The notes beneath the pieces are model-generated. The model saw nothing but the letters and a program-made list of their open reading frames with translations, had not been told where the DNA came from and did no database searches. The translations under genes were made by a program, and so were the position numbers. From a virus: a stretch of DNA of 64,000 nucleotides. Within the stretch, counting starts at the first letter, position 1, and each line of letters starts with the position of its first letter. Shown one piece after another: positions 28,927 to 59,081 of this stretch. The DNA lies in the IMG/VR virus record IMGVR_UViG_3300030041_000010. One strand, 5' to 3'.

Positions 28927-28956
28927 TTGACAAAGTTTTTCGAATACGGGTATTAT
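28927..28956 (+). promoter_or_regulatory. Sigma70-type promoter for the tmRNA
   Basis: TTGACA-N18-TATTAT immediately upstream of the acceptor piece. Confidence 0.65.
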
Positions 28957-28962
28957 TTGTAC

Positions 28963-29324
28963 ATGGTTGTTTGTCCCGCAAGGGACTGAAGACGTTCTAA
29001 ACGACATTCGGACGTGGGTCCGACTCCCACCACATCCACCAAGTTTGGTTTCATTGTTTCACCTTGGGTGTGTCACGGTTTCGACGGGTGTTCAGGCGGA
29101 AGCGGTCTACAACTCGTTTTAGTATACCTGTTCGTTCTCCGGGGAGCCGGAGAGGGTCAGCGATTCCACGCAATACGGTGGATGGCATGGCCTATACGGG
29201 AATGCAACAAAAATAAATGCGGAAACTCCTGCATACGCAATGGCTGCTTAATAACCAGCCCTGCCAAGGTTGACAGTTACCTTGTTCCCAGTCCTGTCTA
29301 GGGTGAGGCCGCGAAAGCGGCCTC
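28963..29324 (+). ncRNA. ssrA: Circularly permuted (two-piece) tmRNA; tag (A)ETPAYAMAA
   Basis: T-arm plus CACATCC-ACCA (ends 29041) lies upstream of GGGTGTG...TTCGAC (starts 29066). G3.U70 pair. Resume codon GCG 29219 after ATAAAT; TAA TAA at 29249-29254. Outer ends are approximate. Confidence 0.9.
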
Positions 29325-29340
29325 TGCCGATTAGGAGTCT

Positions 29341-29583
29341 ATGTCTCGCAGAACTCACACAACCAGAACCCGTCTTAATAATTCACACTACCCTTCATTT
29401 CAAGTGCATTGGATTGAGGATGAGGACTATGGTGGCTGGACCGGCGTGGCTCAAATCTGGAGTGATGGCAATACTAAAGATGGCGGTGAGCACAAGATCT
29501 TCGTAAGCTTTTTTTCGATATCGGAGACTGCGTGTCTTTTCTCCACAATGGAGAGAGTCTCCAAGGTAGTGACACCGAGGTGA
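29341..29583 (+). CDS. Hypothetical protein
   Basis: SD AGGAG, 80 aa. Confidence 0.5.
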   Translation: MSRRTHTTRTRLNNSHYPSFQVHWIEDEDYGGWTGVAQIWSDGNTKDGGEHKIFVSFFSISETACLFSTMERVSKVVTPR

Positions 29584-34340: not shown

Positions 34341-34417
34341 GCCCCCGTAGCTCAACTGGTTAGAGTGACGGTCTCTAAAACCGGAGGTTGTGGGTTCGAG
34401 TCCCTCCGGGGGCACCA
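34341..34417 (+). tRNA. tRNA with CUA anticodon (amber suppressor), copy 1
   Basis: GCCCCCG/CGGGGGC acceptor, anticodon loop CTCTAAA, T-loop TTCGAGT, ACCA end. Confidence 0.85.
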
Positions 34418-35054: not shown

Positions 35055-35132
35055 GCGCCCGTAGCTCAGTTGGCTAGAGCGGGGGTCTCTAAAGCCCTGT
35101 CAGCGTGGGTTCAAGTCCCACCGGGCGCACCA
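35055..35132 (+). tRNA. tRNA with CUA anticodon (amber suppressor), copy 2
   Basis: GCGCCCG/CGGGCGC acceptor, GGGGT-CTCTAAA-GCCCT anticodon arm, TTCAAGT, ACCA. Confidence 0.85.
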
Positions 35133-35469: not shown

Positions 35470-35884
35470 CCCAAAGACTGGCAAAACACCTATGCATTTG
35501 AAGAACCGGGCTGAGTGGGAAGAGCACTACCTTGCTCATCATCTCGCCGAGGACGAACCGGAACTTTATATGCTGTGGAAAAATAATTGAAAGTTTGTGT
35601 TTGAAAATCAACTTTCAATGGTATTATGTAGACAGTGGTGGTTAAACACCGCTGAGACCGGGGAGGTAGAGTAAAATCTACGTTCCCGACCATGCCGGGT
35701 TAGTGGGCAACTATTATCCCGGCTCCATCGGGGGGTTTGGTGAAATATCTGGGCTCCCCGACCAAAAAGGCTAATCCCTAAGACTCGAAGTACCAGAAGT
35801 GGGAAACAGGGTTTATAAAGAGCAGGTTTACCTCCGGCCTAAGCATTAAGTTTCTTGAACATGTAACAAAGAAGGAAATCGTAC

Positions 35885-35971
35885 ATGCGTCTGACGAGCC
35901 AAACACGAATTACTACCACAACGCAAACCAGCGGTGGCGGTATCGTAGTGTCTGGCACGGAATTCGACTAA
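35885..35971 (+). CDS. Thr-rich attenuator leader peptide MRLTSQTRITTTTQTSGGGIVVSGTEFD
   Basis: SD AAGGA; 8 of 28 codons are Thr, including consecutive ACT ACC ACA ACG. Confidence 0.75.
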   Translation: MRLTSQTRITTTTQTSGGGIVVSGTEFD

Positions 35972-36001
35972 AACAAGAGTCAAATCCAACTAGACGCAAA
36001 C

Positions 36002-36036
36002 GAGCCGCCCAACACCGGGGCGGCTTTAGTGTTTTT
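36002..36036 (+). terminator. Attenuator terminator hairpin
   Basis: GAGCCGCCC/GGGCGGCTT stem followed by a T-rich tract; its 5' arm overlaps the antiterminator. Confidence 0.7.
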
Positions 36037-36047
36037 GGGGGTAAATC

Positions 36048-36437
36048 ATGGCGAGTTTTGAAGAACATTGTCAGGACTGTTATAGGCTTTTATCTGACCG
36101 TTGCGAAAACGTGAACCGTTGGATGGACGATTGTTTCAAGCAGTTCGGTCCCTTGCACCGATTTGCCCGACATCACTGGCGTGGGGTTGATGAAGCGGAG
36201 CAGTTGTTTGGGGCTCTCGGTCGTAAGGCGGCGATAGTTCATATCCTGAAGGACTGTGGACAGGTGCCAAAGGCGAGGGAATGGGCAGACGGCCAGAGTG
36301 TTGACAGCCTCGGCATGAAGCCCGGTGGGAAGTTTAACGGTCACTGGGAGCCGGAGCAGTTCGATAAGGTCGCCTGTGGTCACGTGGGTTTGGATAACCT
36401 GATGCTCAAGGCTCGTTATCAGGCGAGGGCATCGTGA
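36048..36437 (+). CDS. His-rich conserved phage protein (DUF6915-like)
   Basis: H...WMD...HRFARHH..G...AEQLFG...HILKDCG. Confidence 0.55.
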   Translation: MASFEEHCQDCYRLLSDRCENVNRWMDDCFKQFGPLHRFARHHWRGVDEAEQLFGALGRKAAIVHILKDCGQVPKAREWADGQSVDSLGMKPGGKFNGHWEPEQFDKVACGHVGLDNLMLKARYQARAS

Positions 36438-36694
36438 GTATCGAAGACATTATCAGTCAACTCCGGGCTGAAAGAAAAGATGTACGCGGAGATGGATTTG
36501 GATACGCGGGGTCGTTAATCTCCGCGTACAAGAAAGCAATCACGGCTCTCGAAGAGTTGCAGGAGAAGTTGAAAGAGACTCCTCCACCAGCAGAGGTTGA
36601 GAGTTTGAAAGCGGCTAACCCTGATTGCTTTGGATTCGGCAGTGACAACACCGCCGAGTGTAAATGCCGCAAAGTTTTTGCGCCTTTCGCCTAG
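36434..36694 (+). CDS. Hypothetical protein
   Basis: GTGA overlap with the upstream gene. Confidence 0.45.
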   Translation: MSIEDIISQLRAERKDVRGDGFGYAGSLISAYKKAITALEELQEKLKETPPPAEVESLKAANPDCFGFGSDNTAECKCRKVFAPFA

Positions 36695-36754
36695 CGGCTA
36701 GGGCCTCCGACCGATTATCGGATGACCAGAGTTCGAGTCTCTGAGGGCGCACCA
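36680..36754 (+). tRNA. Atypical tRNA, nominal anticodon GAT (Ile?), loop CCGATTA
   Basis: GCGCCTT/AGGGCGC acceptor, TCCGA/TCGGA anticodon stem, TTCGAGT, ACCA; C33 and U37 are non-canonical. Confidence 0.65.
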
Positions 36755-36759
36755 AGTTT

Positions 36760-36914
36760 GGGCTTGCTGTGGTCAGGCACGTAGGGAGAAAACCGGCACT
36801 CAGAGTCGGCAAGGTACGCGACCTTGCTTTATGTCTGAGATGGGAAACCGAAAGGTATTGCCCTTCAGGAAGACCTCATGCGTAGAGGCGGTTCAACTCC
36901 GCCCAAGTCCATCA
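36760..36914 (+). ncRNA. 155-nt tRNA-Ala/tmRNA-like RNA with a large structured insert
   Basis: GGGCTTG/CAAGTCC acceptor with G3.U70 and A73; T-arm GGCGG-TTCAACT-CCGCC; no anticodon arm. Confidence 0.65.
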
Positions 36915-36923
36915 AGTGGGTAA

Positions 36924-36998
36924 GCCCGTATGGCTCAGTGGTAGCGCAGTCGCTTGATAAGCGAAAGGTCGTTGGTTCGATCCCAACTACGGGCACCA
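36924..36998 (+). tRNA. tRNA-Ile(GAT)
   Basis: Cloverleaf, loop TTGATAA, ACCA. Confidence 0.85.
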
Positions 36999-37124
36999 AG
37001 TAAAATATGCGGCATGTCGTGAGTTTGTAGCTGGTAAGAATGCCGACATGTCGTGGGCTCAGAAGAAAGAGCCGAAGAAAAAGAAACACGCTTTGCCAAG
37101 TGGCGAGGCAACACAGGGTTGATT

Positions 37125-37224
37125 TTCCGTATGACTGAGGGTGGCGTAAACCACACTGTTGTCAGAACTCAAAATGGTTTTTACGGATCATGCGAGTTCG
37201 TAGGTTCGACTCCGACTACGGAAC
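37125..37224 (+). ncRNA. tRNA-like RNA with enlarged arms
   Basis: TTCCGTA/TACGGAA acceptor, T-loop TTCGACT, inner stems TGAC/GTCA and GAACTC/GAGTTC. Confidence 0.45.
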
Positions 37225-37235
37225 GAATTTGAAAT

Positions 37236-37318
37236 GCCACGGTGGCACAGCGGCGACTGCAACGGTTCCGTAAACCGTCACACCAACATCGGGGGTTCGA
37301 GTCCCTCCCGTGGCCCCA
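37236..37318 (+). tRNA. tRNA-Thr(CGT)
   Basis: GCCACGG/CCGTGGC acceptor, loop TCCGTAA (C33), long variable loop, CCA. Confidence 0.75.
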
Positions 37319-37322
37319 AGTT

Positions 37323-37625
37323 ATGAAGATGTACATCCTAATTCGCGAGGTGGTACCTGTGGGCAAGGCGGTACTAATCTCTGCACATGCCTCGCTGGCG
37401 TGCTACCTGAAGTTTAAGGAACGGCCTGAGATGCAGACATGGGTGAGTAGTCAATTCTTTAAGGTTGTATGTACTGTAACTGACGCAGAATTTGAACGGG
37501 CAAAGACCGAGGCTGACAACGTGGTATTGACGGAATCCACGTTGGAAAATGTAGAGGTTGCTGTAGCTTTCTGTCCTCGGGAAGAATATCCGAAGATGTT
37601 TAAGTTTTTGCGGTTGTGGAAATAG
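37323..37625 (+). CDS. Pth2-like peptidyl-tRNA hydrolase
   Basis: MKMYILIR...AHASLA...W...F.KVVC.V...L.LW. Confidence 0.7.
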   Translation: MKMYILIREVVPVGKAVLISAHASLACYLKFKERPEMQTWVSSQFFKVVCTVTDAEFERAKTEADNVVLTESTLENVEVAVAFCPREEYPKMFKFLRLWK

Positions 37626-37696
37626 GGGTGATGGCGACGGTAGTCTAGCTGCCTTTGAAGCAGTGAATGAGGGTTCGACTCCCTCCGCCCCTGCCA
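37624..37696 (+). tRNA. tRNA-Gln(TTG)
   Basis: GCTGC-CTTTGAA-GCAGT anticodon arm, TTCGACT, GCCA. Confidence 0.8.
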
Positions 37697-37709
37697 AGTT
37701 TAGGTTTAT

Positions 37710-37786
37710 GCCAACGTAGCTCAGATGGTCAGAGCGGCAGTTTTGTAAACTGCGGGTCGGGGGTTCGATGCCCTCCGTTGGCTCCA
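37710..37786 (+). tRNA. tRNA-Thr(TGT)
   Basis: GCCAACG/CGTTGGC acceptor, loop TTTGTAA, TCCA. Confidence 0.88.
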
Positions 37787-37799
37787 GTTTAGTTGTTTT

Positions 37800-37875
37800 G
37801 CAGATGTAGCATAGCGGTCAATGCGCCTCCCTTGTAACGAGGACGCCGTCAGTTCGAATCTGACCATCTGCTCCA
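37800..37875 (+). tRNA. tRNA-Thr(TGT), second divergent copy
   Basis: GCAGATG/CATCTGC acceptor, loop CTTGTAA, TCCA. Confidence 0.85.
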
Positions 37876-38012
37876 GTTTGAGGTACGATATGAGAGTTAT
37901 CAGCATCGCGTTGTACCGATTTGCTCAGGCGCTGTCTTACGTTCTACCTGAGTCGATATGGGAACCAGTGACCTATCCAATCGACCGATTGCGTTGGTGG
38001 TTCGAAAAACAT

Positions 38013-38088
38013 GCACCTGTCGTCTAGTGGCTCAGGACTCCTCCTTGGTATGGAGGGTACAGGGGTTCAAATCCCCTCGGGTGCTCCA
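38013..38088 (+). tRNA. tRNA-Thr(GGT)
   Basis: GCACCTG/CGGGTGC acceptor, CCTCC-TTGGTAT-GGAGG, TCCA. Confidence 0.85.
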
Positions 38089-38109
38089 ATTTTATGGTAT
38101 TGTTCTTCT

Positions 38110-38328
38110 ATGAGTACATTGACGTGGGAAGAACGAAACCAGCGGATTAAAAAGGAACAGCTTACTGAAGAAGAGTTGGGGACTTTAGTAGGCTGTGCTG
38201 TAACCGGAGTGCGGAGATTCTGGGGTCATGGAGCAGAGTATGAAATCCGCTTCGATGATGGTCGAACGCTCTACATTACCAAGAGCGACTACACCAACGA
38301 TGTAGTTTGCATGTTCAAAGAGTTTTAA
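38110..38328 (+). CDS. Hypothetical protein (probably leaderless)
   Basis: TGGTATTGT 6 nt before ATG. Confidence 0.5.
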   Translation: MSTLTWEERNQRIKKEQLTEEELGTLVGCAVTGVRRFWGHGAEYEIRFDDGRTLYITKSDYTNDVVCMFKEF

Positions 38329-38618
38329 GCTACGAGTCGTGGCTCCAGTTTCCGTATTAGTGAGTATTAGTGAGTACGAGGTACTGACTAAATGGGTAAG
38401 AAAGTTGAAAAGGGGTTGTGTTGGGAGTTGGATGATTCGGAGTGTGATATCAACGCCCCCTCACCGCATTTCACGGATGACAGTAGCGAACGTGAGAACG
38501 ACTATCTGTACGGGACGTTTCCCGTGCTGATTCCTAAGAGGCCACCTTCAAGGTTGCAACCTCCGAAGGAACCAAAAGAGTAAATCGCGCAATATAAGTG
38601 GCGCGATTCAGGTTTTAA

Positions 38619-38798
38619 TTGCGTGATTCGGAATCGCGCCATAACGCCGCTTGTGGCAAGCAAGCCACTTGGGTTCGTCACACGCAGTTTGCCGGTACTC
38701 ATCCTTTCTGCACTGAGTGTGCAAAGAAGGAAGATGATTTTGGTGAAGAGTCCAGCTATGTGGTTTGGGAGGAGCTTTTACATGAAGTTGCTCAGTAG
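38619..38798 (+). CDS. Small Zn-finger-like protein (below the ORF-track cutoff)
   Basis: CGKQATW...PFCTECAKKE; start codon uncertain. Confidence 0.45.
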   Translation: MRDSESRHNAACGKQATWVRHTQFAGTHPFCTECAKKEDDFGEESSYVVWEELLHEVAQ

Positions 38799-38972
38799 TT
38801 GGTTCTTCTTCGTGCCTCCATTCACGATCCTGCCTCGGTGGAAGTTGGCAGTTATGCGTCAGTGGCTGTGGAGGTATCAGAGGTATACACAGCCGGGAGT
38901 TCGTGGATGTCCTATGAATGGGGATGCTTTCGGTTGTATCGGATTTTGGATGAGGAAGCTTGTCAATTTTAG

Positions 38973-39048
38973 GCCGGAGTAGCTCAGTTGTTAGAGCGCC
39001 GTCTTGGTAAGACGGAGGTCACGGGTTAGAACCCCGTCTCTGGCTCCA
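38973..39048 (+). tRNA. tRNA-Thr(GGT), second divergent copy
   Basis: GCCGGAG/CTCTGGC acceptor, CCGTC-TTGGTAA-GACGG; atypical D and T loops. Confidence 0.8.
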
Positions 39049-39275: not shown

Positions 39276-39872
39276 ATGGAACAGTATCCGAGTATCGAAG
39301 GCAGTTCAAAGGCCCCCCTTGGTGAGGCGGGTCTTGCCTTCTACAAGTATGACGGCTCGAACCTCAGGTGGGAGTGGAACCCCAAGAAGGGGTGGTTCAA
39401 GTTTGGCACCCGCACCCAACTGTTCGATAAGTCGGAGCCGTTATTTGGTCAGGCCATTCCCCTTTTTATGCAGATGGGCGATGAGATTGTCCATCGTGTG
39501 AAAAGTGTTGAACGACAACCGCAACGCATTACAGCTTACACGGAATTCTTCGGCGAGAGCAGTTTCGCCGGGAGCCATATTCTGGAAGAGCCGAAGCAAC
39601 TCAAGTTGTTCGATGTGTACTTGTTCAAGAAGGGGTTAATGAAGCCCCGACAGTTTGTGAAGACCTTTGGTGGTTTGCCTTATGTAGCGGAAGTGGTTTA
39701 CGATGGCAACATCAACCAATCATTTGTTCAGGGGGTCCGGGCTGGAGAGTATCCAGTTTGGGAGGGGGTCGTCTGCAAGGGCGACAACTTCATGTTCAAG
39801 GTGAAGACCGATGCCTACTTGAGGAAGCTGCGGCAGGTATACCCGCAGCGATGGAATCAGTTTTGGGAGTGA
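39276..39872 (+). CDS. RNA ligase-family nucleotidyltransferase
   Basis: Motifs KYDGSN, EFFG, LFDV, EGVV, FKVK. Confidence 0.75.
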   Translation: MEQYPSIEGSSKAPLGEAGLAFYKYDGSNLRWEWNPKKGWFKFGTRTQLFDKSEPLFGQAIPLFMQMGDEIVHRVKSVERQPQRITAYTEFFGESSFAGSHILEEPKQLKLFDVYLFKKGLMKPRQFVKTFGGLPYVAEVVYDGNINQSFVQGVRAGEYPVWEGVVCKGDNFMFKVKTDAYLRKLRQVYPQRWNQFWE

Positions 39873-40513: not shown

Positions 40514-40714
40514 ATGAAACTTGATTTGCAATCGGCTTCGCGTAAGCCTGACTTTTGGTGGAAAAATCCTATCCTTGTGATGACCCTCGGTCTGATAGCC
40601 ATCGTCTTCGGGGTCTTCGTCCACAACCCGGCTGGTGAGCATATTGCCAATATCGGGACATACGTTCTCGCAGCCGGGATTGTGGTTTGGATACTCAGGC
40701 TGAGACGTTCATGA
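40514..40714 (+). CDS. Small two-helix membrane protein
   Basis: Two hydrophobic segments; SD GAGG. Confidence 0.5.
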   Translation: MKLDLQSASRKPDFWWKNPILVMTLGLIAIVFGVFVHNPAGEHIANIGTYVLAAGIVVWILRLRRS

Positions 40715-41013
40715 AGATGTACATTCTAATCCGGGATGCTGTTCCACCGGGTCTTGCCGTAGTAGCCGCTGCCCATGCGTCATTGGCGTGCTACCTGAGA
40801 TTTCAAGACCACCCGGACATGAAGAAGTGGTTGGAAGGACCGTTCTACAAGGCGGTCTGCAAGGTCTCTGATGGCGAGTTTGAAAAGGCCAAGGAAGAGC
40901 GAGACCATGTGGTGCTCACCGAGTCGGCATGGTTGGTTCAGGAAACAGCGATTGCATTCGTGCCCCGTGAAGAGTATCCGAAGATGTTCAAGTTTCTGAG
41001 GTTGTACAAATGA
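40711..41013 (+). CDS. Pth2-like peptidyl-tRNA hydrolase, paralog of 37323..37625
   Basis: Shares MKMYILIR, AHASLACYL and PREEYPKMFKFLRL. Confidence 0.7.
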   Translation: MKMYILIRDAVPPGLAVVAAAHASLACYLRFQDHPDMKKWLEGPFYKAVCKVSDGEFEKAKEERDHVVLTESAWLVQETAIAFVPREEYPKMFKFLRLYK

Positions 41014-42746: not shown

Positions 42747-42820
42747 TCCGGGCTCGTTCAATGGTAGGACAACGGACTTTGACTCCGTGAATTGAAGTTC
42801 GAATCTTCAGCCCGGAGCCA
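42747..42820 (+). tRNA. tRNA-Gln(TTG)
   Basis: TCCGGGC/GCCCGGA acceptor, loop CTTTGAC, GCCA. Confidence 0.9.
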
Positions 42821-43251: not shown

Positions 43252-45468
43252 ATGTCCATGTCTGTACAGTCCATTGTTTTGCGTCGTTCGAACAAGGTTA
43301 TACTCCCGGTTCGGAACACCGTGTTTGTAGCCAAGTCCCCTGTGTCTCAGGCCCTTGTTGCTACTTTCAATCTGAACATTCAGTCTCTCGGCTACACCCT
43401 ATCTGCCGATGCAATCAAGGCTATCTTGAAGTTGGGTGTGACCTCGGCCACTCTTGTGTTTGATGAAGTCCTGTCGAGCCTCAAGGAAATCAAAGGCGTA
43501 CGCAGTTACAGGCCCATGTACCCGAACTTTCCGAAGCAGGTCATCGAGGCTTTGGATGCAGAACTGTACCTCAACGCGACGATGCACTATTTCAGCTTCT
43601 TGCTGGTTGACCTCACGGGTGACTCCAACAAGATTTGGTTGCCGAAGTATGCGAAGGATAAGCGTGAGCCACTTGACGAGAAGATTGAACTGCGTGTGCT
43701 CGGCGTGGCCGACAAGGTGGCTGTTGACATCCTGACCGACCGTATCGCTACGAGCAACACATCCCTCTCAGCATCGGACAAGGACGACTTGCGTACACTG
43801 CTTACCAGTGGGTATGGGCGGAACATTGACGACATGCTTTCGCGGATTAGCAACAAAGAGAACCTCGCCTTCGTGAGTTCCATCATCTTGTCGTCGGGAT
43901 CAGCAACTGACATCACTCCATATTTCCGCACGGCCACCGACATCCTACGTTTGGCGACCGCGATGAGTGGTGGTGACGTGTCGCTTAAGGACGACTCCAA
44001 GTTCAAGAAGTTCAAAAACTCAGAGCGTCGGTTCTTACTTGGCCTGTTGGAGCCTATCGGTAACAAGGTTGAGGACATGCTCCGCTGGCGCGAGCGTTGG
44101 GTGCGTCTTGGTCATCCACTGCATCCGGGTGAGTCTGCTAAGCGGTTTCCGACCACGGCTCGGGCGTTCACCATTCTCCGTAACAATGAACATGTGGACA
44201 CGTTCCGCACACAGGTGGAGTCCGCTGTTCGCTCCGGACATGTACTTCAGGCTGTGACGCTGTTGACTCAGCATCCGGGTGAGTTCGCTCGTCGGCTCGA
44301 CCACGTGTTACGTCAAGCCCCCAACGCTCACACCCAGCTTCGTGTTGTTGATGCTTTTTTGTCAGTGGCTCACGAGGTCTCAACCCCGGTTCTGTTGCAG
44401 GTACTCGCTCACTTTGAGCATCGTGATGAAACTGACCTGCGTGTTGTGTTCCCGAAGGGGAACGTGGCGAAGGTTATGTCTCTGGATAAGCCCTTGGCGA
44501 AGCTGCCAAAGATAATCACTAATGCTGTCTCTGTTGGTATCGAGTCAGTCCTGTTGTCTCGTTTCTCAGCATTGCCGGATATGGGTAAAGTATATCTCGA
44601 CCCGGCATTGCAGGATGTTCTCTTACCGTTCTCGCAGCGTTCGGCCAACAAGGCTCTCCGCACCTTGGTGCGTGGCTCCAAGTTGTCCTTCGGTGACGAG
44701 AAAAACACCATTCGTTTCTTCATCTGGTGGAAAGACGAAGATAAGTCCGATAATAGCTTCGACAACGGACGGGTTGACCTTGACCTCTCGGCGTGTGCCT
44801 ATGATGAGAATTGGGTGAGCATGGGAGCGGTGACGTATTACAACATGCGTGAGCAGTACGCAGTTCACAGCGGTGATATCACTTCGGCACCGAAAGGCGC
44901 GAGTGAGTTCATCGACGTGGATATTGCGGGGGCTGTTAAGGCTGGTGCGCGTTACATCGTTCAGACGGTTCACAGCTTCACCGGCCAGAAGTTCTCTGAC
45001 GTGCCGGAGGCTCTCGCTGGATTCATGCTTCGTGATAAGCCCCAGTCTGGTGAGGTATACGACCCTCGTACTGTTGTTGACCGGGCGGATGTGACGACCG
45101 AGGCCACCTCTGTTGTGCCGATGATTATCGACATCGTTGACCGCAAGGTTATTTGGGTTGATGCAGCGATGACAACTGGAGGTAGCCGTGGTTACCGTTA
45201 TTTCTCTCGTGGCAACAACGTAGCTTCAACCCGTGGTACAATTGAATTGTTGGGTAAGGCGTTCACCAACATTCACAAGCCGACTCTGTACAGGTTGTTA
45301 AGTCTCCACGCAGCCGTGCGTGGTGAAGTAGTAGCTACCAAGGAAGAGGCGGATGTGGTGTTTTCGGTGGAAGCCGGTACTCCTTTTGAACTCGACCGCA
45401 TCGCTTCCGAGTTCATGGCAGACGCCGTAAAGGAATCTGCTGTGAAGCGGGAGGCGGTGGCAGTCTAA
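43252..45468 (+). CDS. ROT/TROVE-like helical protein with a C-terminal TerD-like domain
   Basis: YPNFP.QV, TATDILRLA..MSGG, HPGEFARRLD; TerD-like VDLDLSA...HSGDITSAP.GASEFIDVD. Confidence 0.75.
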   Translation: MSMSVQSIVLRRSNKVILPVRNTVFVAKSPVSQALVATFNLNIQSLGYTLSADAIKAILKLGVTSATLVFDEVLSSLKEIKGVRSYRPMYPNFPKQVIEALDAELYLNATMHYFSFLLVDLTGDSNKIWLPKYAKDKREPLDEKIELRVLGVADKVAVDILTDRIATSNTSLSASDKDDLRTLLTSGYGRNIDDMLSRISNKENLAFVSSIILSSGSATDITPYFRTATDILRLATAMSGGDVSLKDDSKFKKFKNSERRFLLGLLEPIGNKVEDMLRWRERWVRLGHPLHPGESAKRFPTTARAFTILRNNEHVDTFRTQVESAVRSGHVLQAVTLLTQHPGEFARRLDHVLRQAPNAHTQLRVVDAFLSVAHEVSTPVLLQVLAHFEHRDETDLRVVFPKGNVAKVMSLDKPLAKLPKIITNAVSVGIESVLLSRFSALPDMGKVYLDPALQDVLLPFSQRSANKALRTLVRGSKLSFGDEKNTIRFFIWWKDEDKSDNSFDNGRVDLDLSACAYDENWVSMGAVTYYNMREQYAVHSGDITSAPKGASEFIDVDIAGAVKAGARYIVQTVHSFTGQKFSDVPEALAGFMLRDKPQSGEVYDPRTVVDRADVTTEATSVVPMIIDIVDRKVIWVDAAMTTGGSRGYRYFSRGNNVASTRGTIELLGKAFTNIHKPTLYRLLSLHAAVRGEVVATKEEADVVFSVEAGTPFELDRIASEFMADAVKESAVKREAVAV

Positions 45469-45534
45469 AGTTTCTTGACTATCACCCTCTAATTAGAGGG
45501 GCTATTGAAGCCCTTCCTACTAAGGGCGATAGTC

Positions 45535-46158
45535 ATGGTATTTTACACGGTATACAGAACTCAGAACATCACAAACGGCAGGTATTACTTCGGCGTCCAC
45601 AAGACTAGGAACCCGTATGATGGGTACCTTGGGTCGGGAAAAGTGCTCCGGACTGCGGTTAAAAAGTATGGTGAATCCTCGTTCATCAAGAACATATGTT
45701 TTGTCTTCGACAACCCTGAAGACGCTTTCTCCAAAGAGTTTGAATTGATTGAATCGTATCGCGAAGACCCGTTGTGCTATAACCTGAGACAAGGGGGTAG
45801 CGGGGGTTTCGACTACATCAATCAGGCGGGGCTATCACCGGGATTTAACTACATAAATGCCAACGGACTGGCTGCTGACAACAGGTTAAACCCTAAGCGA
45901 ATTGAAGCGGTCAGGGCATGTTTGGTGGCACACCCGCGCTCTCACCCTTGTTCAGAAGAAACAAAACTCAAGTTACGGAAGGCTTTGGAAGGTCGGATAT
46001 TGGGTGAACGTACCCAAGAGACCAGAGAGAAGATACGAGCCGCAAACAAAGGCAAGGTTCTATCTGAGGAGACTAAAGAAAAAATACGACAATCTCGATT
46101 AAATCGTGGTATTATTAGACATTGCGCGGCTATTGGAGCCCTTCCTTCTAAAAATTGA
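45535..46158 (+). CDS. GIY-YIG (Seg-like) homing endonuclease with NUMOD3-like repeats
   Basis: YTVYRTQN...YYFGVH...YLGSG, YNL..GG.GG, SEETK.KI repeats. Confidence 0.85.
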   Translation: MVFYTVYRTQNITNGRYYFGVHKTRNPYDGYLGSGKVLRTAVKKYGESSFIKNICFVFDNPEDAFSKEFELIESYREDPLCYNLRQGGSGGFDYINQAGLSPGFNYINANGLAADNRLNPKRIEAVRACLVAHPRSHPCSEETKLKLRKALEGRILGERTQETREKIRAANKGKVLSEETKEKIRQSRLNRGIIRHCAAIGALPSKN

Positions 46159-46197
46159 CCGATAATCAAACTAAAAGGTCTCCTGCTCTCCGCCAAT
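46121..46197 (+). ncRNA. Structured repeat RNA, copy 4
   Basis: GCGG-CTATT-GGAG-C-CCT...AGG-T-CTCC-TGCTCT-CCGC; has its own TGGTATTAT box upstream. Confidence 0.7.
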
Positions 46198-46204
46198 ACC
46201 ATCG

Positions 46205-46231
46205 AAACCCCCAAGTAAACTTGGGGGTTTT
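46205..46231 (+). terminator. Intrinsic terminator
   Basis: AAACCCCCAAG-TAAA-CTTGGGGGTTTT. Confidence 0.75.
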
Positions 46232-46450
46232 AACAAAACCTTGTATTAGCTATTGAGGGCCTCATGCTTCTTCCTAGCCAGAACAGTTCTGAAACAGTTC
46301 GCTTCTATGTGAAGTCGAGCAATGGTGTGTATCTGGAGTCAAAGATATTCGTTAATCAAGAAGATGCTGAGTTAGAAATGAAAAAGGAATTCTGGCAGGG
46401 CAGGGAACCTTGCGTTGTGCGGATTACCACCCTTGAAGAAGTTGTTTTAC

Positions 46451-46810
46451 ATGGAGAATAAATGTATCGAACCAAACAAGGACTATGATTGTGCTTGTGC
46501 CATAATGTGGCCTGACGATGAACTCGCCAGCCATTGCCGGTGCGTATGTCATACTCGGATTGAGGAGGATGCTTGGATCACCCAGAAGGCGGCAGAAGAG
46601 GATGGAGCATTTATCGCAGCGGGGCATATCGGCTTTTCCGCGATGTTTGCTCAGATGAAATCCCGCTGTTCTCAAGTCCAACTCCCTTTGAAGCGTAGCA
46701 GTGAGCCTTGGTGGTTCATGCTCGTCGCAGCCGCAATCTCGTTTGGGATAACGATAGGGTTTTTGTTACTGGCGTTGGGTGTTATTTACTTCGCTGCGAG
46801 GCCACACTAA
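46451..46810 (+). CDS. Cys-rich protein with a C-terminal transmembrane helix
   Basis: CACA...CRCVCH; hydrophobic C-terminus. Confidence 0.45.
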   Translation: MENKCIEPNKDYDCACAIMWPDDELASHCRCVCHTRIEEDAWITQKAAEEDGAFIAAGHIGFSAMFAQMKSRCSQVQLPLKRSSEPWWFMLVAAAISFGITIGFLLLALGVIYFAARPH

Positions 46811-47148
46811 TGCCACTAAAAGACAAGCAAGAAGTTCTTGAAGGCATCGCCTTCGGTCTTAACAAAGATGATTCATTTATTATGGGGTCATACATTACCT
46901 TCCGTAGGGAGTGGGCACAGGAAGTCGGCAAAGTTACCAAGATTTGGGTTGTGAACGAGGGGAAACTCCTTCACGGAACTATACTTGGTCAAGTAAGGTG
47001 GTTCCCCCGTTGGCGTAAGTATGGGTTATTCACCGAGGGCGGCATGGTGTTCGAGGAGACCTGCCTTCGAGAAATTGGCTACTTCTGTGAAACGGCTACA
47101 AAGATTCATAAGGCAGCTTTAAAAGAGAGAAAAGCAGCATCAGCATAG
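46810..47148 (+). CDS. Hypothetical protein
   Basis: LG.VRWF.RWRKY...F...CLREI pattern; TAATG overlap. Confidence 0.55.
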   Translation: MPLKDKQEVLEGIAFGLNKDDSFIMGSYITFRREWAQEVGKVTKIWVVNEGKLLHGTILGQVRWFPRWRKYGLFTEGGMVFEETCLREIGYFCETATKIHKAALKERKAASA

Positions 47149-47393
47149 AAGGTGCTATGGAAATTGATGATCGTAAGTTCGCTGCATTCATTCGGTATTA
47201 TGGCCGGAAAGCGTTTGAAGAGGGTGATGAGGATGCGTATATTCGCTATCCCTTTGAAGGCATGGGTACAGACTCCAAAGACTATTCGAGTTCTTCCTGC
47301 GGACACTTTGCAAGTGGATGGTGTTGAAAGTCCCACTGTGGTTTTTATAGCGTTTGTTGATAAGACTGAAGCTGAGACATAGTATTAGTCTAC

Positions 47394-50180
47394 ATGCAAC
47401 TGAATGAAGAACAGATAGCCGCAGTAGAACACCCACTCGGGCAACCAGCTTGTCTCATCGCCGGAGCCGGATCAGGCAAGACTCGCGTTCTTACCGAAAG
47501 AGTAAAATGGCTTATCGCTCAAGGGATTCCACCTAGAAAGATAGCGGCGATAACCTTTACTAATAAGGCCGCAAACGAATTATTAGACCGGCTTCAACTT
47601 GATGGTGCCTCCTTCGATGTCCCCAAAGTATCCACCATTCACTCTATTGCCCTCTCAGCGATACGCCGTGACCCGGTTGGTTTTGGTCTCCAGCAAAAGG
47701 TGACACCGCTGGACGATTATGACCAGAGTCAGATGATTCGCCGGATTGTAGAACGGACGGTTGATGTTAAGGAAAAAGGTATCAGCCTTGGTTCTTATGT
47801 GTATGGTTTCCTTGATAAGGTGGGCTATCACCGCGCTCGGGGTCTCGGGTTTTGTGTGGACTACACCGATGAGGTTCACGAGCAAGCGTTGGTTGCCCAC
47901 GCAGGGCACCACGCTCTTGAGCCGTTTGATTTGCAGATTTGGAAGCTGTACGAAGCTGAAAAACAATCTTGTGGTTCGATAGATTTTGACGACATGCTTT
48001 GCCTGTTTAACCGTCGCTGTGAGCAAGACTCAGCATGGAGAGCCCAACTACAGAAGGCATTTGATGTTGTGCTGGTTGATGAGGCACAGGACTTGTCTGT
48101 TCCGCAGTGGGGGGTAGTTAACGGGCTTCTCGCTCCGGCTAATCCAAACCTAATGACGGTGGGAGATTTGAGCCAGTGCCAACCTCCGGGAACTAAGGTT
48201 AAGGTCACTACCTCCCTTTCAAGGGGTAGCGTCAAATCAAGGTTCGAATTGCGTAACATCGAAGATTTGCGCGACGGTGACTTAGTTCCTACTTGGCACA
48301 AGCGTGACCAAATATCCTATCATTCAGGGCGGAAAATAAAAGTAGCCCACCGCCCCTATTCAGGGGCATTACTTAAAATCACCACTGAAACCAGTTCGAC
48401 TGAATGCACCCCCAATCACTGGAATTGGGTGAGATTCAATAAAAACACAACAGGAAAATACATGGTGTATCTCATGTATCGTTCTGATTTGGGGTTTAGA
48501 GTGGGTCTTAGCATTTTTAAGCGCAGTACAGGGAAGGGCACTACAGGTAGTTATGGGCTCTCCTCTAGGTTCACTCAAGAAAAGGCTGATAAGGCTTGGA
48601 TTTTGGGCGTCTATGACACTCGACAGGAAGCGGAAGCATGGGAAGAAATCATCTCACTAAAATATGGCATCCCTGAGTCCCTTTTTGAAGCTACAGTGTG
48701 CTGGCACAAAACTGATGAGCTAATTAGGCTAATCTTCTCTCACGCTAACCCTGAAGGGGGTCAGCGTTGCTTATCAGACCACGGTCTTATTTTTGAACAA
48801 CCGATTCTGTCTCCACGTGCAGACGGGTTTATAGGTAGAAGTTGGCGTGGGTACTTCAAAACAGCAGCGGCTAACATCCTGCCGGGATTGATGGACATCC
48901 CAATTGAGGGACGGAACAAAAGCGTACCTATTATTGCTTGTCCATCTAGGCACTATGAGGGGTTAGTCTACTCCCTAGATGTTGAAGAAGAGCACACGTA
49001 TATAGCTGATGGGTTAGTCGTAGGGAACTCCATCATGGGATTCAATGGGTCTGCACCACACCTTCTCAAGGAGTTTTCAGAGGGGTGGAGAGGGCACACA
49101 CCCATACTGTATCGTATCGCACGCAACCATCGCAGCCTTCCGCGCATCGTATATCTCGCTAACCACATTCAGTCAAAGATGACTGACACCATTCCACTCA
49201 AGATGCAAGTCTTCCGTGGTGACTCGGATAACAAGGGCACCATCGAACTAACTCGTGCTTCGATGCCCCTTGACATCGCACTGATTATCGCCGGAGAGAT
49301 TTCCAAAGATAACCAGCGTAAGAAGGATCAGATTCCATATAAAGAGAACTGCATCCTTGTTCGCAGTGCCCGTCAGATACCTGACCTTGAGAGCGCACTG
49401 GTGCGTCATCGCGTCCCCTATCAGATACGCGGGGGTCGCGGACTTCTTCAAACAGAAGAGATTCGTGATGTGCTTTCATACTTGAGGCTTGCCACCAACC
49501 CCAAAGATTTTACTGCTCTCGCTCGTGCAGTCACCGTACCCAAGACAGGTGCTGGTGATGTGACGTTGGAAAAGATTCGCAAGACGGCCAATGATAAGTT
49601 CGGCGGTGACTTGATTAAGGGCTGCACCTCTGTTGACAAGTTGTCAACGTTTGTAATGGCGTTGGAACGGTTTCAGAAGTTCGGTGACTATCCGGTTCAG
49701 GCTCTTGACCAAATCATTGACTACATGAACTATAAGAGCTATGTTTCCAACAAGTACAAGAAGGAACCCGACAAGATAAAAACCAAACTGGAAAACATCG
49801 ACCGCTTCAGGGAGCTTGTACGTGGTCTTTCCGAAGATCATAAGATGTCCACTGAAGACCTTGTATTCCAACTTACTATCGACCGGGCACGTGAGGATGA
49901 CAAGGATGGTATGGTCACGGTGTCCACTATCCACTCGGCAAAGGGGCTGGAGTGGCGGAGGGTTTATGTGACGAATGTAGTTGAAGGTAGTTTACCTCAT
50001 CGGTTTTCAATGGGGAGTGAGGCCGAAATTGAGGAGGAGCGCAGACTTTGGTACGTGGCCGTGACTCGCGCTAAAGACGCCCTCACCATTTGTGTACACT
50101 CCATGGAGCAGAACGAGAGCAACACTCGGAGAGTAACACCCAGTCGGTTCTTGTCAGAGATTGGAGTCATCAATGAGTGA
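47394..50180 (+). CDS. UvrD/PcrA-family SF1 helicase containing an intein
   Basis: AGAGSGKT, ITFTNKAA, VDEAQD, VGD..Q, STIHSAKGLEW, EERRLWYVAVTRAK. Confidence 0.92.
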   Translation: MQLNEEQIAAVEHPLGQPACLIAGAGSGKTRVLTERVKWLIAQGIPPRKIAAITFTNKAANELLDRLQLDGASFDVPKVSTIHSIALSAIRRDPVGFGLQQKVTPLDDYDQSQMIRRIVERTVDVKEKGISLGSYVYGFLDKVGYHRARGLGFCVDYTDEVHEQALVAHAGHHALEPFDLQIWKLYEAEKQSCGSIDFDDMLCLFNRRCEQDSAWRAQLQKAFDVVLVDEAQDLSVPQWGVVNGLLAPANPNLMTVGDLSQCQPPGTKVKVTTSLSRGSVKSRFELRNIEDLRDGDLVPTWHKRDQISYHSGRKIKVAHRPYSGALLKITTETSSTECTPNHWNWVRFNKNTTGKYMVYLMYRSDLGFRVGLSIFKRSTGKGTTGSYGLSSRFTQEKADKAWILGVYDTRQEAEAWEEIISLKYGIPESLFEATVCWHKTDELIRLIFSHANPEGGQRCLSDHGLIFEQPILSPRADGFIGRSWRGYFKTAAANILPGLMDIPIEGRNKSVPIIACPSRHYEGLVYSLDVEEEHTYIADGLVVGNSIMGFNGSAPHLLKEFSEGWRGHTPILYRIARNHRSLPRIVYLANHIQSKMTDTIPLKMQVFRGDSDNKGTIELTRASMPLDIALIIAGEISKDNQRKKDQIPYKENCILVRSARQIPDLESALVRHRVPYQIRGGRGLLQTEEIRDVLSYLRLATNPKDFTALARAVTVPKTGAGDVTLEKIRKTANDKFGGDLIKGCTSVDKLSTFVMALERFQKFGDYPVQALDQIIDYMNYKSYVSNKYKKEPDKIKTKLENIDRFRELVRGLSEDHKMSTEDLVFQLTIDRAREDDKDGMVTVSTIHSAKGLEWRRVYVTNVVEGSLPHRFSMGSEAEIEEERRLWYVAVTRAKDALTICVHSMEQNESNTRRVTPSRFLSEIGVINE
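48177..49028 (+). mobile_element. Intein (284 aa) in helicase motif III
   Basis: VGDLSQ|CQPPGT...TPNH...VYSLDVEEEHTYIADGLVVGN|SIMGF; removal restores VGD.xQSI.GF. Confidence 0.88.
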
Positions 50181-50406
50181 TTGGGTTCCTCTAAAAGAGC
50201 GTAAACCAAACCATGACCAAGTTGTGCTGGTCTGGTGGCCTAATGCCCCCGACGAACACCAGTGCTTCAAGGCTCGATTTTGTCGTCATGACAAGCGCAG
50301 AAAGGGTTATTTTGATTGCTCTGAATTCGAGGATGTCTACTGGACGCTGGCGAACGAAGAGGCCACCCATTGGATGCCGTTACCCCAAGGTCCAAAAAAA
50401 AATTAG
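50173..50406 (+). CDS. DUF551-like small protein
   Basis: WVPLKERKP...VLV...THWMPLP. Confidence 0.7.
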   Translation: MSDWVPLKERKPNHDQVVLVWWPNAPDEHQCFKARFCRHDKRRKGYFDCSEFEDVYWTLANEEATHWMPLPQGPKKN

Positions 50407-50451
50407 GGGGAAAAGTATCCAGAGTTAGACTGGTTCAGGTATACTACGTAC

Positions 50452-50715
50452 ATGAGCTACTTCGAGATGGACGAGAACCTCACATCCGAACAACTTCAGG
50501 CTATGCGTAAGTGGGCGAACCTTTATGGTCGCACATGGAAGTCGAAACTCCGCGATGCTTGGATGACCGGCGACTATGCTGGTTTCGAGGGTAGCAATTT
50601 TCTTCAGCAGCTTCGCAACGCCTACGGCCCCTCTTGGCTCATACACTTCAATCTTTCAGTAGTGGAACGGATGCATCTTCCTTCGGCGCGGTTAGTGAGG
50701 GATTCCTATGCCTGA
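50452..50715 (+). CDS. Hypothetical protein
   Basis: GRTWKSKL..AW..G...LQQLRN.YGPSWL. Confidence 0.55.
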   Translation: MSYFEMDENLTSEQLQAMRKWANLYGRTWKSKLRDAWMTGDYAGFEGSNFLQQLRNAYGPSWLIHFNLSVVERMHLPSARLVRDSYA

Positions 50716-50829
50716 GTTTTTAATCGTTGACATGCACACCCATATCGACCCCCATGAAGAGTTGGAAGCAATGGTCGGCCACGACATGAAAATCATCCCC
50801 ATTACATTGGGGTTGGAAGAGGAAGATTG

Positions 50830-51774
50830 ATGCAAAAACCCAGTTATGGTGTACTCGTCGCCCGGTGCCAAGTGCATGAATTGCATGAAGGGCATCTCTG
50901 GTTGTTCAACGAAGTCAAGGCACGTAACTCGCGTGTCATTATTTTCCTTGGCGTCAAACCAATCGGAGCCACTTACAAGAACCCTCTTGACTTCGAGACC
51001 CGCAGGGCGATGATTCAAGCAATTCCCGCCTACAAGGATTTCAATATCCTTCCACTTCCCGACATGCCGACCGATGAAGCGTGGTCGAAGGTTCTGGATG
51101 GTCGCATCCGTGAACTTTGTGATTATGGCGAAGTGACGCTATACGGCTCTCGTGATTCTTTCACAAAGCACTACACCGGCTCGTTTACGCCCGTTGAACT
51201 GACCATGCCACACGACCTTCGCAGCATCAATGGTACGGAGATTCGGGCTGGCCTCACTAATCAAATCATTGCCTCCGCCGACTTCCGGGCCGGGGTCATT
51301 CATGCCATCACCAATCTCCGTCCGCAGGTCAAGGCGACCGTGGACATCGTGATTACCACCGAGACCCTGCTATCGTGGTCGCATCCCGGCCCTGACGCCG
51401 CTAGGTTGACGCGGTTCTTTCTCCTCGGCCAGAAGCCCGGTGAAACGTGCTGGCGCTTCATCGGGGGTTTCTCAGAGCCCACCACACCTTCCTACGAATT
51501 CGATGCGGCTCGTGAAGCCATGGAAGAGACCGGCTTGCCGATTGAAGACCTGAAGTATATTGGCTCAACTCTGGTTCCGGACTGGCGTTGGGCAGGGGAG
51601 CCCGACCAAATCAAGACGCTCGTTTTTGTTGGAACGTCCATGACCATGGGGGGTAAGGCCAACGACGACATCGCCAAGGTGAAGTGGGTTAAGGCCAGCG
51701 AACTCTCCGAGTCGTTGTTCAGTGATGTTCACAAACCCATTTGGCACATCGTCAAAAAGCACTTCAATCTGTAA
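50830..51774 (+). CDS. Bifunctional NMN adenylyltransferase / Nudix hydrolase (NadM-Nudix)
   Basis: ARCQ..HEGH, KNPLDF.TR, NGTEIR; Nudix GGF...AAREAMEETG. Confidence 0.85.
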   Translation: MQKPSYGVLVARCQVHELHEGHLWLFNEVKARNSRVIIFLGVKPIGATYKNPLDFETRRAMIQAIPAYKDFNILPLPDMPTDEAWSKVLDGRIRELCDYGEVTLYGSRDSFTKHYTGSFTPVELTMPHDLRSINGTEIRAGLTNQIIASADFRAGVIHAITNLRPQVKATVDIVITTETLLSWSHPGPDAARLTRFFLLGQKPGETCWRFIGGFSEPTTPSYEFDAAREAMEETGLPIEDLKYIGSTLVPDWRWAGEPDQIKTLVFVGTSMTMGGKANDDIAKVKWVKASELSESLFSDVHKPIWHIVKKHFNL

Positions 51775-51786
51775 AGGGGGCAACAT

Positions 51787-53223
51787 ATGGCACTTTCGAA
51801 ATTGTCGCAAGAGTTTGATGGTAGGGGAGACCTGTACAAATACTCCCACTGGCGGATGTACCCACCGGGCGCTCGACGCCTTGAATCGTACCTCGAATGC
51901 CGCATCGGTGCGAAGTATCACAAGACCGTGCCCTTTGGTCTCCAGTACATCTTGGAGGAATACTTCACCGGCAAGCGCCTTTCGAAGGATGGCATTCTTC
52001 GTCGCCAGTGGAAGATTGACCAAATGATGGGACCGGGAACCTTCAACATCAAGGGTTGGCTGGATATGCTCGAAGCACACGATGGCGCTCTACCCATTCG
52101 CATCAAAGCGATTCCTGAGGGCACCGTATTGGACAACTCCAACGCTCTGCTGGTGCTCGAAAGCGTTGACGACCGTTTCATCTGGTTCAACAACTTCGCT
52201 GAAACTGCCATTATGCAGTCGTGGTATCCCACCACCGTCGCCTCGGCTCAGTTCGCCAAGCGACAGATGTTCCTCGAATTCCTGTACAAGACAGGCGACC
52301 CCGGTCTCATCGACTACAAGTGGGTGGACTTTGGCTATCGTGGTGTGTCTTCGCAGGAGTCAGCGGCTCTTGGTGGTGCGGCTCACTTGCTCAGCTTCAA
52401 ATCGAGCGACACGATGATTGCAGACGACTTCGTGGAAGCCTACTACCCCGATTTAACCGGCGCTCCACACACGGTGAAGATGGGCAGCGTTCCAGCCTCG
52501 GAGCACTCCACGACAACCTCGTGGGGCAAGGAAAACGAGCCTCGTGCTATCGGCAACATTCTGGAAGCGTACCCCACAGGTATTGTCTCCATTGTTGGCG
52601 ACTCGTACGACTACGAGAACTTTGTTCGCGCCATCATCGGTGGTAAGTATCGCGACAGCATCCTTCGCCGTGAAGGTGTGGTTGTGGTTCGCCCAGACTC
52701 TGGTGACCCGGCCACGATGGTCCTTCGCTCCTGCCAGTGGTTGGAAGAAAATTTTGGTGCCGATTACAACGACAAGGGCTACAAAGTTCTCAACAAGCAC
52801 GTTCGTGTCATTCAAGGTGATGGCATTGACTACGACTCCGCTTACGAGATTCTTGCCACACTGGAGCGTTCCAAATACTCGCTGGACAACCTTACCCTCG
52901 GTGAGGGTGGCGGAGCACTCCAGAAGGTCAACCGTGACACACAGCGCACTGCTCTGAAAGCGTCGGCCATCGACATTGAAGGGGTGTGGCACGATGTGTT
53001 CAAAGACCCCAAGACCGACCCCGGCAAGGCATCGAAGGCCGGTCACCTCGCGGTAGTCTGTGTGAATGGGGTATACCGCACCATCCCCAAGCAGGAAGGT
53101 ATCACCTACCCGCAGGATTGCTTGGTTCCTGTGTTCGATACTGGAAAGATTCTGAAGCGTTATGGCTTCGATGAAGTTCGGACTCGGGTTGTGGCAAACG
53201 ACGGAACGGCGGAAGACTTTTAA
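51787..53223 (+). CDS. nadV: Nicotinamide phosphoribosyltransferase (NAMPT)
   Basis: DLYKYSH, WYPTTVAS, DFGYRG, PASEHS, VRPDSGDP, IQGDG, KDPKTDPGK.SK.G. Confidence 0.92.
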   Translation: MALSKLSQEFDGRGDLYKYSHWRMYPPGARRLESYLECRIGAKYHKTVPFGLQYILEEYFTGKRLSKDGILRRQWKIDQMMGPGTFNIKGWLDMLEAHDGALPIRIKAIPEGTVLDNSNALLVLESVDDRFIWFNNFAETAIMQSWYPTTVASAQFAKRQMFLEFLYKTGDPGLIDYKWVDFGYRGVSSQESAALGGAAHLLSFKSSDTMIADDFVEAYYPDLTGAPHTVKMGSVPASEHSTTTSWGKENEPRAIGNILEAYPTGIVSIVGDSYDYENFVRAIIGGKYRDSILRREGVVVVRPDSGDPATMVLRSCQWLEENFGADYNDKGYKVLNKHVRVIQGDGIDYDSAYEILATLERSKYSLDNLTLGEGGGALQKVNRDTQRTALKASAIDIEGVWHDVFKDPKTDPGKASKAGHLAVVCVNGVYRTIPKQEGITYPQDCLVPVFDTGKILKRYGFDEVRTRVVANDGTAEDF

Positions 53224-54135
53224 CTATGAGATTTCAATTGCACAGAAACCCGCAGCTTAGTTTTACACGGTTACCGGACACTACGGTGCTCCGTGCTCTC
53301 GGTGTAAATCGCATTTTAAGTGTCGGGTTTCTGACAATTGGATGGTGGTGGAAAGTATGACTTGGAGTTGGAGTGAAGCAGGCGAAATGACGGAAGAGAT
53401 AAAAGCAAAGATCGATAGCCTAGATCGCTATGAGATGTGCCGCATATGGCGTTATGCTGCCAGTGGGCACTCTTTATTACAAGGCGAAGCGGGAGACTAC
53501 TTCAAGACGCGGCTGTATGATCTAGGGGGCTTTAGTCCTGAAATTAGCAAATCACTTGGATGGGATCACCAAAGATATGTATGATGATGTGTGGGTGGAG
53601 ATGACGGCATCCCCTGATATAGGCTTTTTGGGTTGGATTCATTTCCGCAATGAAAGCATCCCCACTCTCTTGAAAAGAGTCAAGGAGTATCGCAATGGAT
53701 AACAAGAGGGCGGAAGTAGCTCGGCTTCTTAATGACCTCAAAGAGGCCAAAGGTAACCAAGAGAAACTCATGGCCGCATCGGCTCTCCTCGCTGACTTGG
53801 GGCTCATTCCCAACACCCCGCAGATGAAACTCAGGTGGATGAATCAATAGGGACTTACGTAGTTAACTCGGCAAATCAAGAGATGATAGAACTAGATAAA
53901 GGTGAGGTGTTCAGATGAGTATGAGATGGATCGATGGCGAAGGAATGACAACACAAAACATCGAAATCGAAACGGATGTTGTGGACACGACGGATTGTCC
54001 TAAATGTGGCAGTGTTGCTGGTGAGGGTTGCGGTTTCTGGAATCGCGCAATGAATGTGACGTGGGTTAGACCGCACAGTGTCCGCGTCGAACTGTATTTG
54101 CAATCAAACCCTTCGATGACTCAGTATTAAGTAGC

Positions 54136-55594: not shown

Positions 55595-55658
55595 GTGAAA
55601 AAATTCCTTCTTTTCAAGAATTACGCTACCGGGTTCTTAGAAGAGGGGAATACTTCGC

Positions 55659-56654: not shown

Positions 56655-56698
56655 ACTTCAAAACGAAAATTTTCACCTTTATTTAGGTGTGAAGAATT

Positions 56699-59049: not shown

Positions 59050-59081
59050 CTTAACTTTCCTCCTCTAGGGTAGAGGCGTCT

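Follow-up and report, generated by a model that had tools for sequence, protein, structure and literature searches.

The 64,000-nucleotide viral DNA stretch IMGVR_UViG_3300030041_000010 (here called the window) contains what is probably a ribosome-coupled transcription attenuator, one that would admit RNA polymerase into an array of isoleucine, threonine and glutamine transfer RNA (tRNA) genes when the charged tRNAs reading ACN, CAA and ATY codons run short. Whilst the first-pass annotation of this element had described a threonine attenuator, and geometry and conservation both support an attenuator ahead of a phage tRNA array, Thr alone proves too narrow; judged from its codons, the sensor is one for Ile, Thr and Gln(CAA), set before an Ile/Thr/Gln array.

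The unit begins with a short open reading frame (ORF; MRLTSQTRITTTTQTSGGGIVVSGTEFD) and a ribosome-binding site, from which translation is predicted (Table 1); these elements, the promoter-like site and the tRNA genes were read from the sequence itself. The leader has the 28 codons, eight Thr codons and consecutive ACT ACC ACA ACG (35912-35923) earlier claimed for it, the last being one of two runs of four ACN codons in the window, both strands included, and the only one in which the four differ. Nine of codons 2-14 can be read by tRNAs of the array (six Thr, two CAA and one ATT), such that the cluster of control codons corresponds to the role of the genes downstream. Given the codon use of the window, the chance of at least eight Thr in 27 codons is p=0.002, and that of nine Thr/Ile(ATY)/Gln(CAA) codons among codons 2-14 is p=2.5e-5, both being single-site values uncorrected for search. 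On the plus strand of the window this is the only amino-acid-biased short ORF ahead of a terminator. The predicted promoter upstream is the seventh-best plus-strand site in the window (score 7.1, using a matrix built from the promoters of 18 relatives); similar motifs occur 5' of the relatives' leaders, and a generic promoter scan did not pick up the site.

Folding predicts three mutually exclusive hairpins, 1:2, 2:3 and 3:4 (-25.2, about -32.4 and -17.4 kcal/mol, respectively), the layout expected of an attenuator. The 2:3 antiterminator, previously noted to overlap the 5' arm of the terminator, folds as described: the segment 35930-36012 reaches -32.4 kcal/mol (z -4.7), a value equalled by none of 200 shuffles. 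The 3:4 terminator has a GC-rich stem of 9 base pairs, but its U tail is interrupted. We modelled translation by folding the nascent RNA with an assumed ribosome footprint covering 12 nucleotides beyond the first base of the A-site codon. The predicted antiterminator probability is 0.99-1.00 with codons 1-14 in the A site, 0.06 at codon 15 and 0.00 at later codons; without a ribosome it is 0.01, because the 1:2 hairpin takes region 2. In this model a stall frees region 2, a ribosome further along covers it, and the switch falls between codons 14 and 15, in line with the earlier suggestion that a ribosome stalled on the Thr run would leave 35936 onward free.

The scheme we propose is as follows. 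Host ribosomes would follow RNA polymerase along the leader as they translate it; when charged tRNA is sufficient, the ribosome would pass codon 15, the antiterminator would be lost and transcription would end near 36030, whilst with no ribosome the 1:2 hairpin is predicted to form and leave the terminator free. We infer that slow decoding of Thr, Gln(CAA) or Ile(ATY) within codons 4-14 would stall the ribosome, let the antiterminator form first and permit read-through into the tRNA genes, whose products would in turn let those codons be read faster and close the switch, giving negative feedback on tRNA supply. Such a device would serve to make good, one block at a time, the tRNA species that disappear in the course of infection.

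Leaders and arrays in related phages

Six distinct leaders make up the Ile/Thr/Gln class, those of the window and of loci L001, L002/L003, L113, L118 and L121. All six aligned loci have the same terminator stem core and, for the most part, the same Thr/Gln run; the remaining antiterminator sequence differs from locus to locus and aligns poorly, yet all six leaders fold a 2:3 hairpin (-26 to -37 kcal/mol) that captures the 5' arm of the terminator. Pattern searches added nothing to the class. A scan of viral contigs for the four-Thr-codon run gave 100 loci, none of them a leader ahead of a Thr array; a tighter leader pattern returned one viral locus (L001, already known) and none in bacterial and archaeal genomes, such that no host-chromosome source was found; and tRNA-Thr patterns gave no new Thr-class leader (three loci on known contigs, with a second pattern matching 4 of 27 records).

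The first-pass annotation had suggested looking for analogous leader/tRNA pairs for other amino acids, and related jumbo phages supply them. Their tRNA genes are grouped by amino acid into six arrays: Ile/Thr/Gln; Tyr/Leu; Pro/Met/Phe; Val/Gly/Ala/Cys/Asp/Glu; Ser with Leu-TAA; and Trp/His/Arg/Gln/Asn/Lys. Candidate leaders were collected by a rule blind to their content, namely a terminator at most 1.25 kb before a tRNA gene and an ATG-initiated ORF of 15-50 codons ending no more than 70 nucleotides from that terminator. This gave 53 distinct candidates, of which 33, sorted by array content, fall in the six classes. All 33 are most enriched in the amino acids of their own array, an outcome reached by none of 100,000 label shuffles (best 16), although the shuffle test overstates independence because leaders within a class are relatives. 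One genome (G004) carries all six leaders, together covering all 20 amino acids; its Pro leader was found only on a relaxed search, which also recovered Pro leaders in six of eight further Pro arrays.

The matched residues are placed as the model would require, accounting for 348 of 591 residues before the predicted switch point vs 75 of 375 after it across the 33 leaders. Competing pairing with the terminator arm averages 12.8 kcal/mol in these leaders and 6.0 kcal/mol in shuffles; 23 of the 33 beat all 20 shuffles and 27 are beaten at most once. (A first, probability-based folding control was uninformative, with shuffles scoring 0.98, and the energy measure was used instead.) Across 424 kb, comprising the window and 18 fetched regions, and with 7 of 82 hairpins set aside as too weak, competing pairing of at least 10 kcal/mol accompanies 18 of the 22 terminators lying 5' of a tRNA gene (within 1.25 kb) but only 4 of 53 other terminators.

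A cultured phage shows the same design. In Tunturi_5 (PP885688.1), an acidobacterial jumbo phage, the tRNA genes form three arrays whose partition differs from the six-class one, and all three lie behind a short ORF and terminator (record positions 231156, 239222 and 251573). The terminators themselves are at record positions 231277, 239356 and 251754. Residues belonging to a leader's own array make up 14 of 16, 21 of 26 and 26 of 39 of those before the switch point, vs 1 and 1, 2 and 3, and 3 and 10 for the other two arrays. Only the third leader is annotated in the record, as 'hypothetical protein' gp308. The paper describing the phage counts 43 tRNAs, and 'attenuat' and 'leader' are absent from its main text (PMC11924767).

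Two further observations concern these leaders. In more distant phages with other partitions (L130, L140, L146, L150, L166, L168 and L219) the leader-terminator pairs seem array-matched by eye, being unscored, and some of the leaders use nearly all amino acids. The Tyr/Leu leader at L004 4080-4166 and the Ser leader at L119 7723-7803, from different genomes, have an identical 3' half, a hint that arrays exchange switch modules.

Alternative explanations

The same attenuator could in principle respond to amino-acid starvation, threonine first, rather than to tRNA loss. A stalled ribosome cannot distinguish an uncharged tRNA from a missing one, as is established for trp (PMC4615214), the arrays are grouped by amino acid, and 8 of 28 leader codons are Thr. 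However, leaders match their arrays at the level of the codon, and it is mainly for this reason that a signal of tRNA supply is favoured over one of amino-acid supply. Gln is divided between two arrays according to anticodon, and leader spelling tracks the division: every one of the six Ile/Thr/Gln leaders contains CAA, and each of their arrays has Gln-TTG, whereas CAA is absent from the six Trp/His/Arg/Gln/Asn/Lys leaders, which all use CAG (Gln-CTG is visible in three of their arrays, the other three being cut by the end of the locus). Leu-TAA likewise sits with Ser in all five Ser arrays, and TTA together with ATA is found in all five of their leaders vs 0 of 28 others. A sensor of amino acids needs no such division, extra tRNA would not relieve a lack of amino acid, and no biosynthetic or synthetase gene is present among the array genes scanned, all of which makes starvation an unlikely natural trigger.

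Nor does a general sensor of translation speed or transcription-translation coupling, paced by the slow codon CGA and merely tuned by the codon match, account well for the data. CGA makes up 0.4% of window codons yet occurs in about 16 of the 33 leaders (6/6, 1/6, 5/5, 1/5, 0/5 and 4/6 by class), and our model antiterminates for any pause at codons 1-14; six differently spelled leaders, array-matched in 33 of 33 cases, would nevertheless be needless for a single signal, and the matched codons stop at the switch point, such that we consider this explanation improbable. We regard as very improbable the possibility that the element is a remnant without regulatory function, or simply a terminator for the transcript of the tRNA-end-like minihelices upstream (Table 1), with the tRNAs made from other promoters. 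Promoter-like sites do end at 38370 and at 37889 (the latter scoring 6.6), minihelices precede the leader in three of the six Ile/Thr/Gln loci, and an RNA contig spans minihelices and leader; but leaders without minihelices occur in the other three loci and in other classes, the antiterminators are kept despite differing sequences, and across 36030-37880 no candidate promoter scores more than 3.1. The sites ending at 37889 and 38370 mean that the distal tRNA-Gln gene, and the final one or two genes for tRNA-Thr, may be transcribed independently of the leader.

Several points weigh against the ribosome-coupled attenuator itself. On the full transcript at equilibrium the terminator wins nearly everywhere (0.82-1.00; 0.50 at codon 13), and because of this the choice between hairpins has to be kinetic. 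The site ending at 38370 outscores the leader promoter (12.4 vs 7.1), and a hairpin lies within the array at 38583-38608. The codon match is imperfect: Ile-TAT is called in just two of five Ser arrays despite the ATA codons of their leaders; CAG also occurs in two of six Ile/Thr/Gln leaders, with Gln-CTG in only one of those arrays, the L118 leader having two CAG codons and an array without Gln-CTG; and the rare Arg codon CGA, which may be a built-in pause, stands in all six Ile/Thr/Gln and all five Pro leaders ahead of arrays without an Arg tRNA. Among the comparisons, 20 of the 53 candidates were left out (19 with mixed or other arrays and one internal to the window's array), two of the eight Pro arrays rechecked gave no Pro leader, and 10 of 33 leaders fail to beat all shuffles, three being clearly not above them. 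RNA run X1, a set of metatranscriptome contigs found using this stretch, counts in favour of the attenuator only as presence in an RNA library, with DNA carry-over possible. It contains this phage (21 of 21 pieces on 44000-63999 at 99% or more identity), but its contigs give no strand, ends or level, such that the listed depths of 157 for the contig over 35661-35940 (no mismatch, one inserted base) and 6 for that over 36049-36180 cannot rank genes; no high-identity piece covers 35941-36048 or the tRNA genes, a gap that proves nothing.

Genomic setting

The window derives from a large phage genome, with genes for tail and head proteins, homing endonucleases, a helicase, a nicotinamide adenine dinucleotide-salvage pair and an RNA ligase, together with a permuted transfer-messenger RNA and 11 tRNA genes. 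Viral contigs as long as 456 kb encode close relatives of the RNA ligase. An Acidobacteriota host is suggested by sequence similarity, because Tunturi_5 is the best cultured-phage match of two window proteins (54% and 52% identity). A thioredoxin search was uninformative as to host (top matches of 52% or less, from mixed phyla), a NAMPT search in genomes gave three weak loci only, and the array DNA has no close match among cultured phages, where single tRNAs alone were hit. The permuted (two-piece) transfer-messenger RNA, at 28949-29342, has its own promoter-like site, and relatives have one too.

The tRNA genes listed by the first-pass annotation (Ile-GAT twice, Thr-CGT, Thr-TGT twice and Thr-GGT twice) are all present, and two Gln-TTG genes had been missed (Table 1). 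The first GAT tRNA, with U at position 37 and a loop ending GAUUA, may not be an ordinary tRNA-Ile; one such copy stands beside a normal tRNA-Ile in seven of eight loci, the eighth showing one Ile gene only. The gene earlier called a Pth is similar to PTH2, but only over part of the profile, and a second short PTH2-like gene nearby (40708-41013) is likewise a partial match. The DUF6915 gene occupies the same place in L001 and is the second gene in L003. Elements at 36760-36915 and 37125-37222 are tRNA-like, with an acceptor-like stem, a T-loop and large inserts; neither has an Rfam match or a homologue in the fetched loci. An ORF at 38432 ahead of the 38583 hairpin was rejected as a second attenuator, its competing pairing being just 4.3 kcal/mol.

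Upstream of the leader, the minihelices have NCCA ends, two with C-G/A ends and one with a GCC/GGC-U end that resembles this phage's tRNA-Thr; L001 has five and L003 four, and there are none in L113, L118 or L121. Two tRNAs with a CUA (amber) anticodon also lie 5' of the leader (34341-34417 and 35055-35132), and each of the six genomes of Ile/Thr/Gln type that were checked has them at this place. TAG still closes 8 of 39 long plus-strand frames in the window, so that the phage shows no sign of recoding. In L113, L118 and L121 the CUA tRNAs stand next to small clusters of tRNA-like genes that have non-canonical anticodon loops and that ARAGORN could not assign; no leader was called ahead of these clusters.

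Table 1. Features of the leader region and tRNA array (window coordinates).
Feature	Position	Strand	Remarks
Predicted sigma-70-like promoter	35601..35627	+	TTGAAA; extended -10 TGG-TATTAT
Three CCA-ending hairpins (tRNA-end-like minihelices)	35659-35692, 35694-35727, 35729-35764	+	Folds of -18 to -19 kcal/mol
Shine-Dalgarno-like AAGGA	35872..35876	+	8 nucleotides before leader ATG
Leader ORF	35885..35971	+	ATG 35885 to TAA 35971; 28 codons, 8 Thr
Predicted sensing zone	35894-35926	+	Codons 4-14; Thr, Gln(CAA) and Ile(ATT) codons plus one AGC and one CGA
Predicted 1:2 hairpin (anti-antiterminator)	35895..35959	+	-25.2 kcal/mol; forms without leader translation
Predicted 2:3 antiterminator	35936..36009	+	Takes up 5' arm of terminator
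Intrinsic terminator-like hairpin	36002..36036	+	9 base pairs, stem 36002-36026; -17.4 kcal/mol; found by terminator scan
DUF6915 protein gene	36048..36437	+	Pfam PF21866, 29.8 bits (cut-off 27); first gene behind terminator
tRNA with GAT anticodon	36680..36754	+	Atypical loop (C33, U37)
tRNA-Ile(GAT)	36924..36998	+	
tRNA-Thr(CGT)	37236..37318	+	Long variable arm, C33
PTH2-like protein gene, predicted	37323..37625	+	Partial: 27.2 bits (cut-off 23), profile positions 1-74 of 115
tRNA-Gln(TTG)	37624..37696	+	
tRNA-Thr(TGT)	37710..37786	+	
tRNA-Thr(TGT)	37800..37875	+	
tRNA-Thr(GGT)	38013..38088	+	
Promoter-like site inside array	38337..38373	+	Ends at 38370; matrix score 12.4
tRNA-Thr(GGT)	38973..39048	+	
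RNA ligase-like gene adjoining array	39276..39872	+	PHROG 548, E 2.8e-7
Second tRNA-Gln(TTG), distal	42747..42820	+	May have own promoter

Known attenuators and the role of phage tRNAs

Multivalent attenuators of amino-acid operons are exemplified by the thrL leader, with its Thr and Ile codons, and by the ilvGMEDA leader. Charged-tRNA level also controls components of translation through termination and antitermination, at the pheM attenuator of pheST and at T-box riboswitches; the targets in these cases are synthetases or biosynthesis, and T-boxes, which bind tRNA without a ribosome, have been reported near Firmicutes tRNA genes, reports for which our literature search returned nothing. The window element resembles the enterobacterial leader-peptide attenuators (thrL, ilvGMEDA and trpL) in having a short leader whose control codons are clustered, alternative 1:2, 2:3 and 3:4 hairpins, and a predicted stall site immediately before the antiterminator arm, and would resemble pheM and the T-boxes in reading charged tRNA. 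Unlike the former, it is phage-encoded and stands before tRNA genes, its codons follow anticodons besides amino acids, and a single genome (G004) can hold a six-leader set for all 20 amino acids. The first-pass description of established, thrL-type attenuation holds as an analogy but overstates the case: the element scores 13.4 bits (E 8.8) against the Rfam Thr_leader family (RF00506), below the gathering score of 55 required for membership, and the downstream genes are tRNA, DUF6915 and PTH2-like genes rather than those of threonine biosynthesis. Rfam gave no T-box match for the element either. The three-state layout of trp attenuation (PMC4615214) matches our model.

Phage tRNAs have been proposed to offset cleavage of host tRNAs (PMC10264068). 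That hypothesis, as framed in the main text of PMC10264068, shares with the present system the idea of tRNA replacement, to which the unusual anticodon loops seen here may relate, but it includes no sensing or on-demand control, and 'attenuat' and 'leader' are absent from that main text. In Tunturi_5 a matched leader and terminator likewise precede every array, of which there are three rather than six. A full-text literature search, in which subscription and old literature is thinly covered, returned no account of tRNA genes controlled by leader-peptide attenuation; what we propose is a known attenuation mechanism with a target, tRNA genes, not found in print.

Destruction of host tRNA is the context that we infer for this system from the PMC10264068 hypothesis, the adjoining RNA ligase-like gene and the unusual anticodon loops. 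It is conceivable, if slightly short of an even chance, that the six leaders act as independent feedback loops which together take a codon-by-codon inventory of the cell's tRNA pool, each inducing only its lost block, for example after attack by host anticodon nucleases. On that reading the system would amount to an inducible counter-defence, and the leaders to a readable list of the tRNA species that the phage expects to lose.

It has long been asked whether phage tRNA genes serve codon compensation or replace tRNAs destroyed in the host. If the proposed mechanism is correct, the phage would gauge decoding and produce tRNAs as they are needed, and the question would become a direct test of which stress opens which array, one for which the cultured pair Tunturi_5 and Tunturiibacter psychrotolerans, carrying the same design, is available. 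The tRNA genes would then join amino-acid operons among the targets of classic attenuation, in a closed feedback loop at anticodon resolution, and the leaders could also serve as ready-made reporters of single tRNA species.

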